Part shown: positions 12,135 to 58,103 of the stretch, one piece after another
Layout of the letters: each line of letters opens with the position of its first letter
Position numbering within the stretch: position 1 is the stretch's first letter
Assembly (NCBI RefSeq): GCF_044324785.1
Contig: NZ_CP172129.1
DNA: 64,000 nucleotides
Direction: 5' to 3' (one strand)
DNA from: Escherichia coli
Lineage (GTDB): Bacteria; Pseudomonadota; Gammaproteobacteria; Enterobacterales; Enterobacteriaceae
Translations under genes and position numbers: made by a program
Notes under the pieces: generated by a model
Databases searched by the model: none
What the model was told of the DNA's origin: nothing
The model's input: only the letters and a program-made list of their open reading frames with translations

Positions 12135-12524
12135 CCGTGCTCATTTCCTCAAAAAATACAAGAAAAGAATTAGTATTCTAACAAAAAGTGAAATAAATTG
12201 TATCAAACTCCCTCTTTTAATCCTGTTGAGTAAATCAGCTTTTGCAATAGGATTGAAAGAGTGTAAGTGGAATCTCTTCCGGATACTCGTTACCACCGTG
12301 GCTAGAATATCTACGGCTGCGGGCCAGTAATAGATTAAGTGATAACAGCTGTCTGGAAATGTAGGGGCGTATCCACTAATCATAATCATTGTGAGATAAA
12401 TATTACGGGGCATTTTATAATGAATAAAATATACTCTCTAAAATATTGTCATATTACCAATACCATGAAGGTGATGCTGCCAACTTACTGATTTAGTGTA
12501 TGATGGTGTTTTTGAGGTGCTCCA

Positions 12525-12800
12525 GTGGCTTCTGTTTCTATCAGCTGTCCCTCCTGTTCAGCTACTGACGGGGTGGTGCGTAACGGCAAAAGCACCGCCG
12601 GACATCAGCGCTATCTCTGCTCTCACTGCCGTAAAACATGGCAACTGCAGTTCACTTACACCGCTTCTCAACCCGGTACGCACCAGAAAATCATTGATAT
12701 GGCCATGAATGGCGTTGGATGCCGGGCAACTGCCCGCATTATGGGCGTTGGCCTCAACACGATTTTACGTCACTTAAAAAACTCAGGCCGCAGTCGGTAA
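12525..12800 (+). CDS. insA: IS1 InsA
   Basis: 91-aa [94 protein letters not shown]. Confidence 0.9.
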
Positions 12801-13222
12801 CCTCGCGCATACAGCCGGGCAGTGACGTCATCGTCTGCGCGGAAATGGACGAACAGTGGGGCTATGTCGGGGCTAAATCGCGCCAGCGCTGGCTGTTTTA
12901 CGCGTATGACAGTCTCCGGAAGACGGTTGTTGCGCACGTATTCGGTGAACGCACTATGGCGACGCTGGGGCGTCTTATGAGCCTGCTGTCACCCTTTGAC
13001 GTGGTGATATGGATGACGGATGGCTGGCCGCTGTATGAATCCCGCCTGAAGGGAAAGCTGCACGTAATCAGCAAGCGATATACGCAGCGAATTGAGCGGC
13101 ATAACCTGAATCTGAGGCAGCACCTGGCACGGCTGGGACGGAAGTCGCTGTCGTTTTCAAAATCGGTGGAGCTGCATGACAAAGTCATCGGGCATTATCT
13201 GAACATAAAACACTATCAATAA
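12719..13222 (+). CDS. insB: IS1 InsB (expressed as InsAB' by frameshifting)
   Basis: 167-aa ORF overlapping insA in the -1 frame, canonical IS1 layout. Confidence 0.85.
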
Positions 13223-13399
13223 GTTGGAGTCATTACCGCCTTGACCATCAGATAGTTATTTTGGTGCTAGGGATACTGAGTGTGAACAGTTAGCGCGCGT
13301 CCTCGCCAGTTAGCTCGCTACGCTCGGTTACACGACGGCTACGAGTACTAGTGATAATTATTGACTGAGGTATGTGCTCTTCCTGTTTCCTTTTTTGAT

Positions 13400-28317: not shown

Positions 28318-28469
28318 TGCGGCAATAATCACACGGATTACCCGTGAACTGGTTGAACGACCAGATTATTTTCAGGGAAAGTGAGTGTGGTCAGCGTGCA
28401 GGGATATGAGCTATGATGTGCCCGGCGCTTGAGGCTTTCTGCCTCATGACGTGAAGGTGGTTTGTTACC

Positions 28470-28545
28470 GTGTTGTGTGGCAGAAGGCAGAAAGCCCCGT
28501 AGTTAATTTTTCATTAACCCACGAGGCCCCCTGTATGTCTGATCA
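28470..28545 (-). ncRNA. sok: Sok/FlmB antisense RNA (position approximate)
   Basis: Inferred from the conserved hok/sok architecture (antisense to the mok leader); not directly delimited in sequence. Confidence 0.3.
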
Positions 28546-28750
28546 ACAACAGTATGGCCTCTTACCGTGCTTAATGCAAGGAGGAGTAAACCATGAAACT
28601 ACCGGGAAACGCCCTTATCTGGTGCGTATTAATCGTGTGCTGCACGTTGTTAATATTCACACTCCTGACCCGGAATCGTCTGTGCGAAGTCCGGCTGAAG
28701 GACGGATACAGGGAGGTTACGGCAAGTTTGGCTTACGAATCCAGCGGTAA
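28535..28750 (+). CDS. mok: Mok/FlmC (modulation of killing) reading frame overlapping hok
   Basis: ORF 28451..28750 overlaps hok in a different frame and ends 4 nt before the hok stop; start set at internal MSDQQQ. Confidence 0.5.
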
Positions 28751-31175: not shown

Positions 31176-31685
31176 TTAATTGTTCTGCACACTGTTCATT
31201 TGGGAAAGTGATTTCTTCGTGGTCGGAACCCGGATACCTTTACTGCTTTTTATCCCGGTATAAATCCGGTAAACATCTGATGCGTAGGCAAGACGCCTCT
31301 GGTTCTGGCGTTCGGTTTTCCTGAATCCGGCATTGTATGCACCAACGGCCTCCCAGGTGACGCCCCATTTTTTAAATGCTATTGCCAGATAATAAGCACC
31401 GGTATAAATGTTCATGCAGGGATCTGTTGTCATATGTTCCGGCTTAATTCCGTAGCGGGCCAGTTCGTTAAAATGCTGGGAATCTACCTGCATCAGTCCG
31501 CTGCCATATCCCGTTACCGGATTAATACCGATGGCATTAACCCGGTAACGGGATTCTTGCCATGATATTGCTCTCAGTAAATCAGGATCTATTTTGTAAT
31601 CCCTGCCTGCAAGATCAAAGCAATCAGTGGCCAGACAGATCTCATTTATAAACATCAGGCAGATGGCTAACATCCATTTTTTCAT
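31176..31685 (-). CDS. Lytic transglycosylase (F orf169/gene X homolog)
   Basis: 169-aa secreted protein with SLT-domain motifs (ISWQESRY ... GLMQV ... AYNAG); located next to oriT as in F. Confidence 0.8.
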
Positions 31686-31699
31686 TTTTCCACCTCTGG

Positions 31700-32099
31700 T
31701 GACTTTATCCGTAAATAATTTAACTCACTCCACAAAAAGGCTCAACAGGTTGGTGGTTCTCACCACCAAAAGCACCACACCCCACGCAAAAACAAGTTTT
31801 TGCTGATTTTTCTTTATAAATAGAGTGTTATGAAAAATTAGTTTCTCTTACTCTCTTTATGATATTTAAAAAAGCGGTGTCGGCGCGGCTACAACAACGC
31901 GCCGACACCGTTTTGTAGGGGTGGTACTGACTATTTTTATAAAAAACATTATTTTATATTAGGGGGGGCTGCTAGCGGCGCGGTGTGTTTTTTTATAGGA
32001 TACCGCTAGGGGCGCTGCTAGCGGTGCGTCCCTGTTTGCATTATGAATTTTAGTGTTTCGAAATTAACTTTATTTTATGTTCAAAAAAGGTAATCTCTA
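31700..32099. other. oriT: Origin of transfer oriT with nic region and TraM binding sites
   Basis: caccacaccccacgcaaaaacaag is the complement of the F-type nic sequence GCGTGGGGTGTGGTG (nick near 31776 on minus strand); downstream palindromes gcggtgtcggcgcgg...ccgacaccg and ataccgctaggggcgctgctagcggtgcg resemble R100-type TraM sites. Confidence 0.75.
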
Positions 32100-32483
32100 A
32101 TGGCTAAGGTGAACCTGTATATCAGCAATGATGCCTATGAAAAAATAAATGCGATTATTGAGAAGCGTCGACAGGAAGGGGCAAGGGAAAAAGATGTCAG
32201 TTTTTCAGCAACAGCTTCAATGCTTCTTGAACTGGGGCTTCGTGTACATGAGGCTCAGATGGAGCGTAAAGAGTCTGCATTTAATCAGACTGAGTTTAAT
32301 AAATTGCTTCTTGAATGCGTTGTAAAAACACAATCATCAGTAGCGAAAATTTTGGGTATTGAGTCTCTCAGTCCTCATGTCTCCGGAAATCCAAAGTTTG
32401 AATATGCCAATATGGTTGAAGATATCAGGGAGAAGGTATCATCTGAGATGGAACGATTTTTTCCAAAAAATGATGATGAATAA
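32100..32483 (+). CDS. traM: Relaxosome accessory protein TraM
   Basis: 127-aa ORF MAKVNLYISNDAYEKINAIIEKRRQEGAREKDVSFSATASMLLELGLRV... Confidence 0.9.
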   Translation: MAKVNLYISNDAYEKINAIIEKRRQEGAREKDVSFSATASMLLELGLRVHEAQMERKESAFNQTEFNKLLLECVVKTQSSVAKILGIESLSPHVSGNPKFEYANMVEDIREKVSSEMERFFPKNDDE

Positions 32484-32589
32484 AAGAAATTTGACTTCGT
32501 TCAAATATCAGAGTTTTTATGATTTAAAAAGGTGACAGTACGAAAGATAATTAGTATATTAATTACGTGGTTAATGCCACGTTAAAATT

Positions 32590-32668
32590 TGAAATTGAAA
32601 ATCGCCGATGCAGGGAGACGTGAACTCCCTGCATCGACTGTCCATAGAATCCTTTGTGAGGAGGTTCC
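32590..32668 (-). ncRNA. finP: FinP antisense RNA (position approximate)
   Basis: Stem-loop cgatgcaggga-gacgtgaac-tccctgcatcg and a second hairpin covering the traJ SD lie in the traJ leader; FinP is antisense to this region in F-like plasmids. Confidence 0.45.
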
Positions 32669-32669
32669 T

Positions 32670-33359
32670 ATGTATCCGATGGATCGTATTCAACAAAAAC
32701 ATGCTCGTCAAATAGATCTGCTGGAAAATCTGACGGCAGTTATTCAGGATTATCCAAATCCAGCCTGTATCAGGGACGAAACTGGAAAATTTATTTTTTG
32801 CAATACGCTGTTTCATGAGTCATTTCTTACACAAGATCAAAGTGCTGAAAAATGGCTTCTGTCGCAGAGAGATTTTTGTGAATTGATCTCTGTCACAGAG
32901 ATGGAAGCATATAGGAATGAGCATACGCATCTTAATCTTGTAGAGGATGTTTTTATTCAGAACAGATTCTGGACAATATCTGTCCAGTCATTTCTTAATG
33001 GACACAGAAATATTATTCTGTGGCAATTTTATGATGCTGCTCATGTTCGTCATAAAGACAGTTATAATCAAAAAACGATTGTCAGTGATGATATCAGAAA
33101 TATAATCAGAAGAATGAGTGATGATTCTTCTGTATCATCATATGTAAATGATGTCTTTTACTTATATAGCACCGGAATCAGTCATAATGCTATAGCAAGA
33201 ATATTAAATATATCCATCTCCACATCAAAGAAACACGCATCTCTGATATGCGACTACTTCTCTGTTTCTAATAAAGATGAGTTAATTATCTTACTCTACA
33301 ATAAAAAGTTTATTTATTATTTATACGAGAAAGCTATGTGTATCATAAATACGCGTTAA
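32670..33359 (+). CDS. traJ: Transfer operon activator TraJ
   Basis: ORF 32589..33359, start set at MYPMDRIQQKHARQIDLLENL behind gaggaggttcct. Confidence 0.85.
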   Translation: MYPMDRIQQKHARQIDLLENLTAVIQDYPNPACIRDETGKFIFCNTLFHESFLTQDQSAEKWLLSQRDFCELISVTEMEAYRNEHTHLNLVEDVFIQNRFWTISVQSFLNGHRNIILWQFYDAAHVRHKDSYNQKTIVSDDIRNIIRRMSDDSSVSSYVNDVFYLYSTGISHNAIARILNISISTSKKHASLICDYFSVSNKDELIILLYNKKFIYYLYEKAMCIINTR

Positions 33360-33451
33360 TAAGGTGTTAATAAAATATAGACTTTCCGTCTATTTACCTT
33401 TTCTGATTATTCTGCAAACATAAGTGGTAACCAGAAGATAAACAGCGGGAG

Positions 33452-33853
33452 GTGTTATTGAAAAGATTTGGTACACGTTCTGCAACAGGTAAGATGGTAA
33501 AACTAAAATTACCTGTAGATGTGGAAAGTCTATTAATTGAGGCAAGTAACAGAAGCGGAAGAAGTCGATCGTTTGAGGCAGTAATAAGACTTAAAGATCA
33601 TCTTCACCGCTATCCAAAGTTTAACAGGGCAGGGAATATCTATGGTAAGTCGCTGGTTAAGTATCTGACAATGCGTCTGGATGATGAAACTAACCAGCTA
33701 CTTATTGCAGCCAAAAATCGTAGTGGATGGTGTAAAACAGATGAGGCTGCAGACAGAGTTATTGATCATTTGATCAAGTTTCCTGATTTTTATAACTCGG
33801 AGATATTCAGGGAGGCAGATAAAGAGGAAGATATAACATTTAATACACTCTAG
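33452..33853 (+). CDS. traY: Relaxosome protein TraY
   Basis: KRFGTRSATGKMVKLKLPVDVESLLIEASNRSGRSRSFEAVIRLKDHL, duplicated ribbon-helix-helix. Confidence 0.9.
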   Translation: MLLKRFGTRSATGKMVKLKLPVDVESLLIEASNRSGRSRSFEAVIRLKDHLHRYPKFNRAGNIYGKSLVKYLTMRLDDETNQLLIAAKNRSGWCKTDEAADRVIDHLIKFPDFYNSEIFREADKEEDITFNTL

Positions 33854-33885
33854 TTTTATTCATTTATCCGAAATTGAGGTAACTT

Positions 33886-34251
33886 ATGAATGCTGTTTTA
33901 AGTGTTCAGGGTGCTTCTGCGCCCGTCAAAAAGAAGTCGTTTTTTTCCAAATTCACTCGTCTGAATATGCTTCGCCTGGCTCGCGCAGTGATCCCGGCTG
34001 CTGTTCTGATGATGTTCTTCCCGCAGCTGGCGATGGCCGCCGGCAGCAGTGGTCAGGACCTGATGGCAAGCGGTAACACCACGGTTAAGGCGACCTTCGG
34101 TAAGGACTCCAGTGTTGTTAAATGGGTTGTTCTGGCTGAAGTTCTGGTCGGTGCTGTCATGTACATGATGACCAAAAACGTCAAGTTCCTGGCCGGTTTT
34201 GCCATCATCTCTGTATTTATTGCTGTGGGTATGGCCGTCGTTGGCCTCTGA
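33886..34251 (+). CDS. traA: Propilin TraA (F-pilin precursor)
   Basis: 121-aa ORF with long leader ending ...[30 protein letters not shown] and hydrophobic C-terminal half. Confidence 0.9.
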
Positions 34252-50425: not shown

Positions 50426-53243
50426 ATGAAGTTTATGTGATTGCCGGTGGTGAGTGGTTGCGGAATAACCTGAACGCCATTGCCGCCTTTATGGGAACCA
50501 GGACGTGGGATTCCATTGAAAAAATTGCGCTCACATTGTCTGTTCTCGCGGTGGCCGTGATGTGGGTACAGCGGCACAACGTGATGGATTTGCTGGGCTG
50601 GGTGGCCGTGTTTGTGCTTATCAGCCTGCTGGTTAATGTCCGCACATCGGTGCAGGTTATTGATAACAGTGACCTGGTCAAAGTTCACCGGGTGGATAAT
50701 GTGCCGGTCGGACTGGCGATGCCACTTTCACTGACGACCCGTATCGGGCATGCAATGGTGGCCAGTTACGAGATGATCTTCACGCAACCGGACAGCGTCA
50801 CCTACAGCAAAACGGGGATGCTGTTTGGCGCAGAACTGGTATCAAAAAGCACCGACTTTTTGTCCCGGAATCCGGAAATCACCAATCTTTTCCAGGATTA
50901 TGTGCAGAACTGCGTGATGGGGGATATTTACCTGAACCACAAATATACGCTGGAGGAGCTGATGGCCTCCGCTGATCCCTACACGCTGATTTTTTCCCGC
51001 CCCAGCCCGCTGCGGGGCGTTTATGACAGCAATAATAATTTCGTAACCTGTAAGGACGCTTCGGTTTCGCTGAAAGACAAGCTGAATCTGGACACACAGA
51101 GTGGCGGAAAAACCTGGCATTATTATGCCCAGCAGCTATTTGGCGGACGCCCTGATCCTAACCTGCTGTTCAGTACGCTGATTGGCGACAGTTACAGTTA
51201 CTTCTATGGCTCAAGTAAATCAGCCAGCCAGATCATCCGCCAGAATGTCACCATCAATGCGCTGAAGGAGGGGATCACCAGTTATGCCGCACGTAATGGT
51301 GATTCGGCCAGCCTGGTGAATCTGGCCACCACGTCATCGATGGAGAAACAACGTCTGGCACATGTCTCCATCGGTCATGTGGCGATGCGGACACTGCCCA
51401 TGACGCAGACCATCCTGACGGGGATCGCCATCGGTATTTTCCCGCTCCTGGTACTGGCGGCTGTCTTCAACAAACTGACGCTGTCCGTCCTGAAAGGCTA
51501 TGTGTTTGCCCTGATGTGGTTGCAGTCATGGCCAATGTTGTACGCCATTCTGAACAGCGCCATGACATTTTATGCAAAGCAGAATGGTGCACCGGTGGTG
51601 CTCTCGGAAATTTCACAGATACAGCTGAAATACTCCGATCTGGCTTCCACTGCCGGGTATCTTTCCATGATGATCCCGCCATTATCCTGGATGATGGTCA
51701 GGGGGCTCGGGGCAGGATTTTCCAGTGTGTACAGCCATTTCGCTTCCTCTGCTATCAGCCCGACCGCCAGTGCAGCAGGCAGTGTGGTTGACGGTAATTA
51801 CTCCTACGGCAACATGCAGACGGAAAACGTGAACGGCTTCAGCTGGAGCACCAACAGCACCACGTCGTTTGGTCAGATGATGTACCAGACCGGCAGTGGC
51901 GCAACCGCCACACAGACCCGTGACGGTAATATGGTGATGGATGCAAGCGGAGCGATGTCCCGGTTACCGGTCGGCATCAATGCAACGCGTCAGATTGCGG
52001 CGGCACAACAGGAAATGGCCCGGGAAGCATCGAACAGAGCAGAAAGTGCCCTGCATGGGTTCAGCAGCAGTATTGCCAGTGCCTGGAACACGCTCAGTCA
52101 GTTTGGTTCTAACCGGGGGAGCAGTGATTCTGTCACCGGTGGTGCTGACAGCACGATGAGTGCACAGGACTCCATGATGGCCAGCCGTATGCGCAGTGCA
52201 GTGGAAAGCTATGCGAAGGCGCATAATATCAGTAATGAGCAGGCGACTCAGGAACTGGCATCAACAAGTACCAGGCTATCTGGTGGAATGTATGCTGATG
52301 CTCATGCTGAATGGGGGGTTAAACCTAAAATTCTTGGTGTTGGTGGTGGGGTAGGCATCAGAGGTGGATTTAAGGGGAGCCTGGATGCAACGGATGATGA
52401 CTCACATTCAGCAAGTAGTGGCAGCAGGGCTACCCATGATGCTCGCCATGATATCGATGCTAAAGCCAGTAAGGACTTTAAAGAGGCCAGCGATTACTTT
52501 ACCAGTCGCAAAGTCAGTGAATCCGGCAGCCATACTGACAATAATGCCGATTCCCGCGTGGACCAGTTGTCTGCAGCCCTGAACTCAGCGAAACAGAGTT
52601 ACGACCAGTACACGACGAATATGACCCGCAGCCATGAATATGCTGAAATGGCATCCCGTACTGAAAGCATGAGTGGGCAGATGAGCGAAGATTTGTCGCA
52701 ACAGTTTGCACTGTATGTGATGAAACACGCACCGCAGGATGCCGAAGCTATTCTGACAAACACCAGTTCACCGGAGATTGCAGAACGCCGTCGGGCGATG
52801 GCATGGTCTTTTGTTCAGGAACAGGTGCAGCCTGGTGTTGATAATGCCTGGCGTGAATCCCGTGGGGATATTGGTAAAGGAATGGAGAGCGTACCTTCGG
52901 GTGGTGGCAGCCAGGATATTATTGCTGACCATCAGGGGCATCAGGCCATTATTGATCAAAGAACGCAGGACAGTAATATCCGTAATGATGTAAAACATCA
53001 GGTTGATAATATGGTCACAGAATATAAAGGGAATATCGGAGATACTCAGAATAGTATTCATGGCGAAGAAAATATTGTAGACAGACAATATTCAGAGTTA
53101 AAAAATAATCACAAACAGGAAGAAATTCAACAAAACAACAGATATAATGAAGAAAATAAACGACAGAAATTAATGCCAACACCGTCTGAAGATGCATTAA
53201 AACAGATGGTGGATGATAAGAAAGAACGATTGAAGGGGCCATT

Positions 53244-53247
<4 letters not shown>
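50422..53247 (+). CDS. traG: Mating pair stabilization/pilus assembly protein TraG
   Basis: 941-aa polytopic membrane protein. Confidence 0.9.
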
Positions 53248-54944
<1,697 letters not shown>

Positions 54945-55949: not shown

Positions 55950-58103
55950 ATGAGTTTTAACGCAAAGGATATGACCCAGGGCGGTCAGATTGCGTCCATG
56001 CGTATCCGCATGTTCAGCCAGATCGCCAATATCATGCTTTACTGCCTGTTTATTTTTTTCTGGATACTCGTTGGTCTGGTTTTATGGGTAAAAATAAGCT
56101 GGCAGACGTTTGTGAACGGCTGTATTTACTGGTGGTGTACCACGCTGGAAGGCATGCGGGATTTAATCAAGTCCCAGCCGGTATATGAGATCCAGTATTA
56201 CGGCAAAACCTTCCGGATGAACGCTGCTCAGGTACTGCATGATAAATATATGATCTGGTGCGGAGAGCAGCTATGGTCCGCATTCGTTCTGGCTACAGTT
56301 GTGGCACTGGTTATTTGCCTGATTACCTTCTTTGTTGTCTCCTGGATTCTGGGGCGTCAGGGTAAACAACAGAGCGAAAATGAAGTCACAGGTGGTCGTC
56401 AGCTGACGGAGAACCCGAAAGACGTTGCCCGGATGCTGAAAAAAGACGGCAAGGACTCCGATATCCGGATTGGCGACCTGCCGATTATCCGGGATTCCGA
56501 AATCCAGAACTTCTGTCTGCACGGCACGGTCGGGGCCGGTAAGTCGGAAGTTATCCGTCGTCTGGCCAACTACGCCCGTCAGCGTGGAGATATGGTGGTG
56601 ATTTATGACCGTTCAGGGGAATTTGTTAAAAGTTACTATGATCCCTCCATCGATAAAATCCTGAATCCGCTGGATGCCCGCTGTGCCGCCTGGGATTTGT
56701 GGAAGGAGTGCCTGACACAGCCGGATTTTGATAATACCGCGAACACGCTGATCCCGATGGGCACAAAAGAGGACCCGTTCTGGCAGGGTTCAGGACGTAC
56801 CATTTTTGCGGAAGCGGCGTACCTGATGCGTAATGACCCCAACCGCAGCTACAGCAAACTGGTGGACACACTGCTTTCCATCAAAATCGAAAAACTGCGT
56901 ACCTTCCTGCGTAATTCACCGGCGGCCAACCTGGTGGAAGAGAAAATTGAGAAAACGGCGATTTCCATCCGTGCTGTGCTGACCAACTACGTGAAAGCCA
57001 TCCGTTACCTGCAGGGGATTGAGCATAACGGTGAGTCTTTTACCATCCGTGACTGGATGCGGGGTGTCCGGGAAGATCAGAAAAACGGCTGGCTGTTTAT
57101 CTCGTCGAATGCCGACACCCATGCCTCCCTGAAGCCGGTGATCTCCATGTGGCTGTCCATTGCCATTCGTGGTCTGCTGGCAATGGGAGAAAACCGTAAC
57201 CGTCGTGTGTGGTTTTTCTGTGATGAGCTACCCACGTTACACAAACTGCCGGACCTGGTGGAGATCCTGCCGGAAGCCCGTAAGTTCGGTGGCTGTTATG
57301 TGTTTGGTATCCAGTCCTATGCCCAGCTGGAAGATATCTACGGTGAGAAAGCGGCTGCCACGCTGTTTGACGTCATGAACACCCGTGCCTTTTTCCGTTC
57401 TCCCAGCCATAAGATTGCAGAGTTCGCTGCCGGTGAGATTGGTGAGAAAGAGCACCTGAAAGCCAGCGAGCAGTACTCCTACGGTGCTGATCCGGTACGT
57501 GACGGGGTATCGACCGGTAAGGATATGGAGCGCCAGACGCTGGTCAGTTATTCCGACATTCAGTCTCTGCCGGATTTGACCTGTTATGTCACCCTGCCCG
57601 GACCGTATCCGGCAGTAAAACTCTCACTGAAATATCAGGCACGTCCGAAGGTTGCCCCTGAGTTTATTCCGCGTGACATCAACCCGGAAATGGAGAACCG
57701 CCTGAGCGCCGTACTTGCCGCAAGGGAAGCAGAAGGTCGTCAGATGGCCAGCCTCTTCGAACCGGATGTGCCGGAGGTTGTTTCCGGAGAAGACGTGACT
57801 CAGGCTGAACAGCCGCAACAGCCGGTGTCTCCTGCCATCAACGATAAGAAGTCAGATTCAGGTGTGAATGTTCCGGCAGGGGGGATCGAGCAGGAGCTGA
57901 AAATGAAACCGGAAGAAGAGATGGAACAGCAACTGCCACCCGGGATCAGTGAATCCGGTGAAGTGGTGGATATGGCCGCTTATGAGGCATGGCAACAGGA
58001 AAATCATCCGGACATCCAGCAGCAGATGCAGCGTCGTGAAGAGGTGAACATTAATGTGCACCGGGAGCGCGGGGAGGATGTTGAGCCGGGAGATGATTTC
58101 TGA
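55950..58103 (+). CDS. traD: Type IV coupling protein TraD
   Basis: 717-aa ORF, Walker [10 protein letters not shown]-terminal QQP-rich region ending DDF. Confidence 0.9.

Follow-up and report, generated by a model that had tools for sequence, protein, structure and literature searches.

The closest described systems are the transfer control regions of plasmid F, of R100, of R1-type plasmids and of IncF aerobactin/sit virulence plasmids such as 134q. In the F relaxosome structure, IHF occupies +23 to +60, the TraY sites lie between IHFa and sbmC, and the DNA from +95 to +138 contains sbmC; the same work contrasts the single ribbon-helix-helix (RHH) TraY of R1 with the F form (PMC12117103). 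[quoted passage not shown] TraM residues 3 and 5 determine specificity for the F or R100 sbmA, R100 TraM with the R3K/I5N change complements an F traM mutant 60,000-fold better, and the F sbmA motif is A(G/C)CG(G/C)T (PMC3159463). For the relaxase, a passage in PMC7826260 (citing Harley and Schildbach 2003) describes a two-residue TraI mutant that switches F specificity to R100. On the regulatory side, FinO binds stem-loop structures largely regardless of their sequence (PMC3105414), and among the group A F-like plasmids F alone is not finO+ (PMC5102898).

Here we describe the corresponding locus in a 64,000-nucleotide stretch of Escherichia coli DNA, referred to throughout as the window. We hold with very little doubt that it is the cis-acting transfer origin, with the adjacent regulatory switch, of a conjugative F-like plasmid (MOBF12 / MPF-F), and that it carries the F alleles and not those of R100 or R1. 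The oriT/traJ-FinP region is an already known textbook element, and it is common: among 4,757 plasmid records that match, approximately 1,100 reach 95% identity or more over the region (272 at 99% or more, 856 at 95-99%).

Layout of the transfer region

Our map of open reading frames (ORFs) places the segment from 31176 to 34251 in the canonical F-like order of gene X, oriT, traM, finP/traJ, traY and traA. For each part, its presence and position, its structure and its allele can be read directly from the window (Table 1). Gene X flanks oriT on the leading-region side, and F, R100 and the plasmid 134q (NZ_CP023363.1) each have an annotated SLT-domain protein in the corresponding position. One 500-nt tile had made gene X a candidate R100-like segment; its coding sequence has 19 nucleotide differences from F versus 27 from R100, and the candidate was rejected. 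The spacer between traM and traJ is 186 bp. An initial annotation of the window had recognized, from 31700 to 32670, an oriT with TraM sites followed by a traJ-finP control region. This functional identification is correct: the elements stand at or near the positions that it gave and far exceed chance expectation, and the interval ends on the A that opens the traJ start codon. Far downstream, traD directly abuts traI without a trbH/vapBC block, as in R100, and traX is cut by the end of the window at position 64000. Every tra ORF that we looked at is intact.

Table 1. Features of the transfer region, with coordinates in the window
Feature	Coordinates	Strand	Description and basis
Gene X / orf169	31176-31685	-	Lytic transglycosylase, 169-aa ORF; Pfam SLT, E 2.5e-22
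oriT	31686-32099		Non-coding, 414 bp
oriT core, transferred strand	31747-31803	-	Exact F match and inverted repeats
Putative IHFa site, then TraY sites sbyC and sbyA	31799-31870		AT-rich; placed by inference from PMC12117103
sbmC	31871-31914		TraM-binding palindrome nearest nic; inverted repeat, 17-nt arms, 94% complementary
sbmB and sbmA	31960-32030		TraM-binding repeats upstream of traM; direct and inverted repeats
traM	32100-32483	+	Relaxosome and TraD-docking protein, F allele with S98P; Pfam Tra_M, E 4e-55
Candidate traJ promoter	32532-32560	+	GTGACA, 17 nt, TATATT; consensus scan 10/12
traJ mRNA 5′ UTR	32565-32675	+	Rfam RF00243 (traJ_5), 124.8 bits, E 4e-22, gathering score 50
finP antisense RNA gene	32598-32676	-	SLI, spacer, SLII and U tail; Rfam RF00107, 97.3 bits, gathering score 45
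traJ	32670-33359	+	Activator of tra operon promoter PY, F allele
traY	33452-33853	+	Relaxosome accessory protein, tandem ribbon-helix-helix; Pfam TraY, two stretches
traA	33886-34251		Pilin
IS5-family insertion	53750-54944	+	In last codon of traS; 1195 bp, TTAG target duplication; Pfam DDE_Tnp_1, DUF772
traD	55950-58103	+	Coupling protein; C-terminal tail is the TraM docking site
traI	58103-63373	+	Relaxase/helicase, 1756 aa

Host plasmid and the insertion in traS

The host is not F but an IncF virulence plasmid of the aerobactin/sit kind. Besides IS1, sopAB and the leading region, sit and the aerobactin genes iucABCD-iutA are found in the left half of the window. IncF virulence plasmids of 134-155 kb from E. 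coli and Salmonella give 100% matches to the window. Plasmid 134q is 100% identical across 31700-32670 and almost the whole window, and it encodes the same TraM (WP_001151524.1) and TraJ; from 40000 to 64000 it is collinear and 100% identical apart from one insertion. In the 134q-like relatives traS has no IS5-family insertion and the first 2-2.8 kb of the window are different, and p1_21366 matches at full length but has an IS5-like element elsewhere in traS as well as further insertions. We defined the IS5-family insert against an otherwise identical plasmid, and the matching element is annotated in RefSeq as an ISKpn26-family transposase. Nucleotide comparison of traS found no similarity to F or R100.

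This insertion gives rise to the alternative that survives best, which we regard as possible though doubtful: that the control region is intact while self-transfer is inefficient. According to this reading, the element in traS cuts traT, traD and traI off the PY transcript, and oriT would mainly be mobilized in trans by a co-resident F-type system. The element lies outside the control region but does sit inside the long tra operon, upstream of all three genes, and is absent from otherwise identical plasmids; in favor of this reading, the tra genes have also been described as transcribed together over roughly 40 kb from one promoter (PMC5102898). The element may be polar on traT, traD and traI expression, but it points in the same direction as the operon, transcription could read through it or leave it outward, and the tra ORFs are intact as noted above. 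Weaker promoters of their own have also been reported for traT, traD and traI, which counts against this reading.

That the window is plasmid F itself, or a segment of an F-prime or Hfr, is hardly credible. From oriT to traA the identity to F is indeed 99.5-100%, yet the tra region as a whole reaches only 97.6%. Moreover, traS has no F match, the 3′ part of traG is divergent (83-94% identical to F), the trbH/vapBC and artA segments of F are missing, and the sit and aerobactin cargo is that of the 134-155-kb virulence plasmids. The finO gene of F is broken by IS3, whereas it is intact in the relatives of the window.

Comparison of the whole region with reference plasmids

The preferred reading, an F-like plasmid that carries the F alleles of the transfer origin and its switch, was examined against F (NC_002483), R100 (NC_002134) and pSLT (NC_003277). 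R1 was represented by PDB entries 1dp3 and 5n8o, which we take to be from R1, and by the R1-type plasmid pB-9427-3 (NZ_CP086262), retrieved with 1dp3 as the probe. The comparison with pED208 used the TraM protein chain 3on0.

A single 22-kb HSP aligns positions 25616-47871 collinearly with F at 97.6% identity. Over 31700-32670, the window is identical to F at 966 of 971 positions (99.5%), with four substitutions and one extra G. The corresponding values are 786 of 994 (79.1%) for R100 and 73.0% for pSLT, and the R1-type plasmid aligns only at the nic-proximal 110 bp and in the part from traM to traJ. None of R100, pSLT, the R1-type plasmid and the TraM of pED208 is closer to the window than F. 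The five differences from F fall at 31725, 31966, 31968 (the extra G, in sbmB), 32391 (S98P in TraM) and 32485. The R100 alignment stands at 87% up to 32720 and is then lost across traJ and traY. The initial annotation had taken this region to be R100-like and had named an alignment with F rather than R100 as the outcome that would overturn its view. Aligned allele by allele, oriT, traM, traJ, traY and traI group with F, so the R100-like reading is refuted by its own test.

The nic region

A 57-nt query made by joining the two F oligonucleotides of PMC3074121, and covering the hairpin, nic and the TraI site, has a single exact match in the window, with 0 expected. Read 5′ to 3′ on the transferred strand, this core consists of the hairpin GCAAAAAC/GTTTTTGC, the TraI recognition bases GCGTGGGGTGT, nic, GGTGCTTTTGG and the inverted repeat TTGGTGGT/ACCACCAA. 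The repeat finder locates the last of these at 31750-31769 and the other nic-flanking inverted repeat at 31786-31803. Since T141′ lies immediately 5′ to nic in F, nic is placed between 31777 and 31776 on the minus strand.

The nic core has the F form, 5′-GCGTGGGGTGT^GGTGC, with G at 145′ and 147′. The R100 core GCGTAGTGTGT differs from that of the window and F at two bases, which in the multiple alignment occur in R100 alone, and a search of the window for the R100 form GCGTAGTGTGT^GG returned no match with up to 1 mismatch allowed. The claim that the nic region resembles R100/R1 rather than F therefore does not hold for R100. The R1-type plasmid pB-9427-3 has the same core, GCGTGGGGTGT^GGTGC, as F and the window. 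The nic core thus sets R100 apart from F and R1 without telling those two from each other; it is TraM, TraY, TraJ, FinP and the accessory-protein part of oriT that firmly group the window with F.

IHF, TraY and TraM sites

Taking window position 31777 as +1, the F relaxosome structure allows the putative IHF and TraY sites to be placed between the core and sbmC. This stretch aligns with F with zero differences, whereas in R100 and the R1 type it either cannot be aligned or diverges strongly. Next to it, sbmC falls inside the interval that corresponds to +95 to +138. In the multiple alignment the window equals F in the IHF/TraY region, in sbmC and in sbmA, and both R100 and pSLT are highly divergent there. 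The TraM-binding palindromes, which had likewise been attributed to R100/R1, are thus of the F kind at sbmA and sbmC.

The repeat finder also detected repeats with GCTGCTAGCGG motifs at 31963-31988 and 31997-32028, the positions of sbmB and sbmA. The sbmA repeat carries ACCGCT...AGCGGT and is identical to F, whereas the pED208 type has a GANTC-type sbmA. Across the whole window the hexamer A(G/C)CG(G/C)T occurs 75 times versus 58 expected, a count that is uninformative. Two of the five differences from F lie in sbmB, namely T>G at 31966 and the extra G at 31968. A promoter scan of the plus strand from sbmA to traM, a stretch identical to F, found no strong consensus traM promoter.

Specificity proteins

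The proteins that act on these sites follow the same pattern. The relaxase domain of TraI is identical to F at 301 of 310 residues and to R100 at 286 of 310. It carries Q193/R201, and residues 185-205 are identical to F, where R100 has R193/Q201; residues 193 and 201 are reportedly the two that switch specificity. The relaxase domain of the R1-type TraI (PDB 5n8o) has the F-type segment at 185-206, as does the window.

TraM is identical to F at 126 of 127 residues, S98P being the sole change, compared with 114 of 127 for R100 and 100 of 127 (78.7%) for the R1 type. Its N-terminus, MAKVNLY, is that of F (K3/N5); R100 has MARVILY (R3/I5) and the R1 domain 1dp3 has K3/Q5. Over residues 2-54 it matches the N-terminal-domain chain 4qpo exactly, a chain that presumably comes from F, and residues 58-127 differ from the solved C-terminal-domain chain 2g7o only by S98P. 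The R1 N-terminal domain 1dp3 (AKVQAYVSDEIVYKIN..., AKVQAYVSDE...), to which the TraM N-terminal domain of pB-9427-3 is equal, is clearly divergent from the TraM of the window. The pED208 TraM (3on0) is more distant still, at 80.9 bits versus 139 for the top TraM chain, 2g7o.

TraY is identical to F at all 133 residues, with 26.3% identity to R100 and 27.8% to the R1 type; the R100 and R1-type proteins are single-domain and 75 aa long, while the window encodes the 133-aa tandem form. TraJ is likewise identical to F at 229 of 229 residues, versus 22.8% to R100, 23.3% to the R1 type and 22.3% to pSLT. It corresponds to RefSeq WP_000283385.1, the same in F and in the relatives, and its only PDB match is 4kqd, the N-terminal domain of F TraJ (PMC5102898). 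TraD is identical to F at 709 of 717 residues, including the last 45, and the TraA pilin at 121 of 121.

Some observations would fit an assignment of the oriT, the TraM sites and the traJ/finP alleles to the R100 or R1 group, served by TraI, TraM, TraY and FinP of that type: the general architecture, which is common to all F-like plasmids; the nic-proximal 110 bp, identical to the R1-type plasmid at 109 positions; a few distal tra tiles (41501, 43001 and 60501-61501) that are equally near or slightly nearer to R100 than to F; and the traD-traI junction. Against the identity values over the region, the missing R100 nic form, the F-type residues of TraI and TraM, the long TraY, the nearly unrelated TraJ proteins and the F-type FinP loops described below, this assignment is as good as excluded. 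By sequence, the relaxosome is instead predicted to have F-type specificity, with F forms of the nic core, TraI, TraM, TraY and the TraD tail, and the allele sets of the R100 and R1 types are absent, as are the TraM and sbmA of the pED208/IncFV type.

The traJ leader and FinP

The initial annotation had also proposed that the traJ leader carries FinP-complementary stem-loops, and this is borne out by Rfam matches to traJ_5 and FinP on opposite strands. The stem-loops of the leader are complementary to FinP, and the Shine-Dalgarno sequence AGGAGG and the ATG at 32670 lie within the second of them. [quoted passage not shown] It folds at -37.6 kcal/mol (z = -6.46), and 0 of 200 shuffled sequences fold as well; the terminator-like stem and U tail are at 32638-32604. 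A consensus scan gave a candidate finP promoter (TTGACG, 17 nt, TACGAT) at 32711-32683. The candidate traJ promoter is situated just upstream of the start of the Rfam traJ_5 match at 32565, and its identity with F suggests that it functions as such.

FinP is identical to F at 79 of 79 positions. The R100 FinP is identical at 74 of 79. Four of its five differences are in loops (one in SLI, three in SLII) and the fifth is in the stem of SLII, so that the stems are mostly conserved while both loops differ from the window. The pSLT FinP differs at 8 positions, and the R1-type FinP is identical at 67 of 77, again with both loops different.

finO and probable FinOP repression

The FinP-traJ antisense pair is intact and has the sequence of F. 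As the initial annotation had expected, the window ends before finO. Collinearity with 134q puts the gene approximately 1161-1721 nt past position 64000. In 134q the gene is intact, with 186 codons, and its product is 96.2% identical to R100 FinO. Because the binding of FinO is largely independent of sequence, an intact finO would be expected to work with an F-type FinP. FinOP-repressed transfer is the likely state of this plasmid by analogy with its relatives, although finO could be disrupted in this particular molecule. Since finO is outside the window, we infer FinO-dependent repression and do not read it from the DNA itself.

Proposed operation of the locus

Near-identity with F suggests that the origin and the switch are active, and they would then operate as follows. 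IHF and TraY would bind beside nic, and TraM would bind sbmA, sbmB and sbmC. TraI, guided by Q193/R201, would recognize GCGTGGGGTGT^GG on the minus strand and cut between 31777 and 31776. The traJ mRNA would begin near 32565, and its leader and start codon would be covered by the 79-nt antisense FinP from the opposite strand. With the help of the FinO chaperone, FinP would pair with the traJ leader and block the synthesis of TraJ, which would keep the PY-driven tra operon, from traY to traX, mostly off.

Implications

A further and rather improbable suggestion is that the plasmid is a relative of an 'ancestral, repressed' F module, that is, one which combines the F alleles of oriT, TraM, FinP, TraJ and TraY with an intact finO, and in which the changes in sbmB and TraM or the insertion in traS might alter transfer rates. 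If this were true, TraM autoregulation or docking to TraD might be retuned by TraM S98P and the G-run variant of sbmB, and the IS5-family insertion might release traT, traD and traI from control by TraJ and PY. The transfer rates of a widespread lineage of aerobactin virulence plasmids could change as a consequence.

For the F-like plasmid with F alleles that we favor, the meaning lies in compatibility and mobilization, on which an R100-like label would lead to wrong predictions. The F allele set predicts that the plasmid would be mobilized by TraI, TraY and TraM of the F type, not of the R100 type, and that its transfer would be repressed by an F-type FinP.

oriT control region and relaxosome

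The segment at 31700-32670, which holds oriT, the TraM sites, traM and the traJ/finP control region, differs from F (NC_002483) at five places, two of which could have functional effects. The first is in sbmB (31966-31968), where F GGGGTGC is replaced by GGGGGGGC through a T>G change and one extra G. The second is TraM S98P (32391), which falls in the tetramerisation/TraD-binding domain. Neither variant is private to this plasmid: many natural plasmids with a 100% match share both.

Comparison with R1-type sequences limits what the relaxase and its target can say. The R1-type plasmid L011 (NZ_CP086262.1) has the same nic core as F, and TraI of PDB entry 5n8o carries an F-type segment at residues 185-206, so that nic and TraI by themselves do not tell F and R1 apart. 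R100 (NC_002134) is the only one of the three that differs at these sites. The window lacks one base that F has shortly before the start codon of orf169 (gene X), within about 31680-31690. This deletion closes the 200-aa upstream extension that RefSeq annotates for F and R100, and the ORF has the classical 169 aa, as in 134q (NZ_CP023363.1), a closely related aerobactin/sit virulence plasmid.

Leading region and cargo

The left part was annotated by identity to relatives (see table). The sok match belongs to a post-segregational killing locus of the hok/sok type (flm-like) within the leading region, and relatives have a Hok/Gef gene annotated at the corresponding position. The part of 134q that corresponds to 1-25000 is immediately preceded by crcB and the sit genes. 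The best-matching plasmids are not collinear with the window over its first 2-2.8 kb.

Features located in the window
Feature	Position	Basis or detail
aerobactin genes iucABCD-iutA	left part, 1-25000	identity to annotated relatives
sopAB partition genes	left part, 1-25000	identity to annotated relatives
leading-region genes	left part, 1-25000	identity to annotated relatives
IS1 copy	about 12470-13237	identity to annotated relatives
sok antitoxin RNA	28423-28595	Rfam match, 92.7 bits
IS5-family element	53750-54944	1195 bp; transposase ORF 53818-54810

Transfer operon and entry exclusion

Between trbA and traQ (47871), the window lacks about 278 bp of the artA region of F. At 58103 the stop codon of traD overlaps the start codon of traI, and the trbH/vapBC block of F (~710 bp) is therefore absent from this junction, as it is in R100.

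The IS5-family element (terminal repeats GGAAGGTGCGAA; target duplication TTAG) is inserted at the last codon of traS, changing the TraS C-terminus from ...ESVS* to a different ending, and stands between the upstream operon and traT, traD and traI. Plasmids otherwise 100% identical to the window lack it. In the region 51000-53750, traS has no nucleotide match in F, R100 or pSLT (NC_003277), and traG reaches only 83-94% identity to F over its 3' third. Together, these two observations suggest that the entry-exclusion specificity differs from that of both F and R100, although the relaxosome is F-type.
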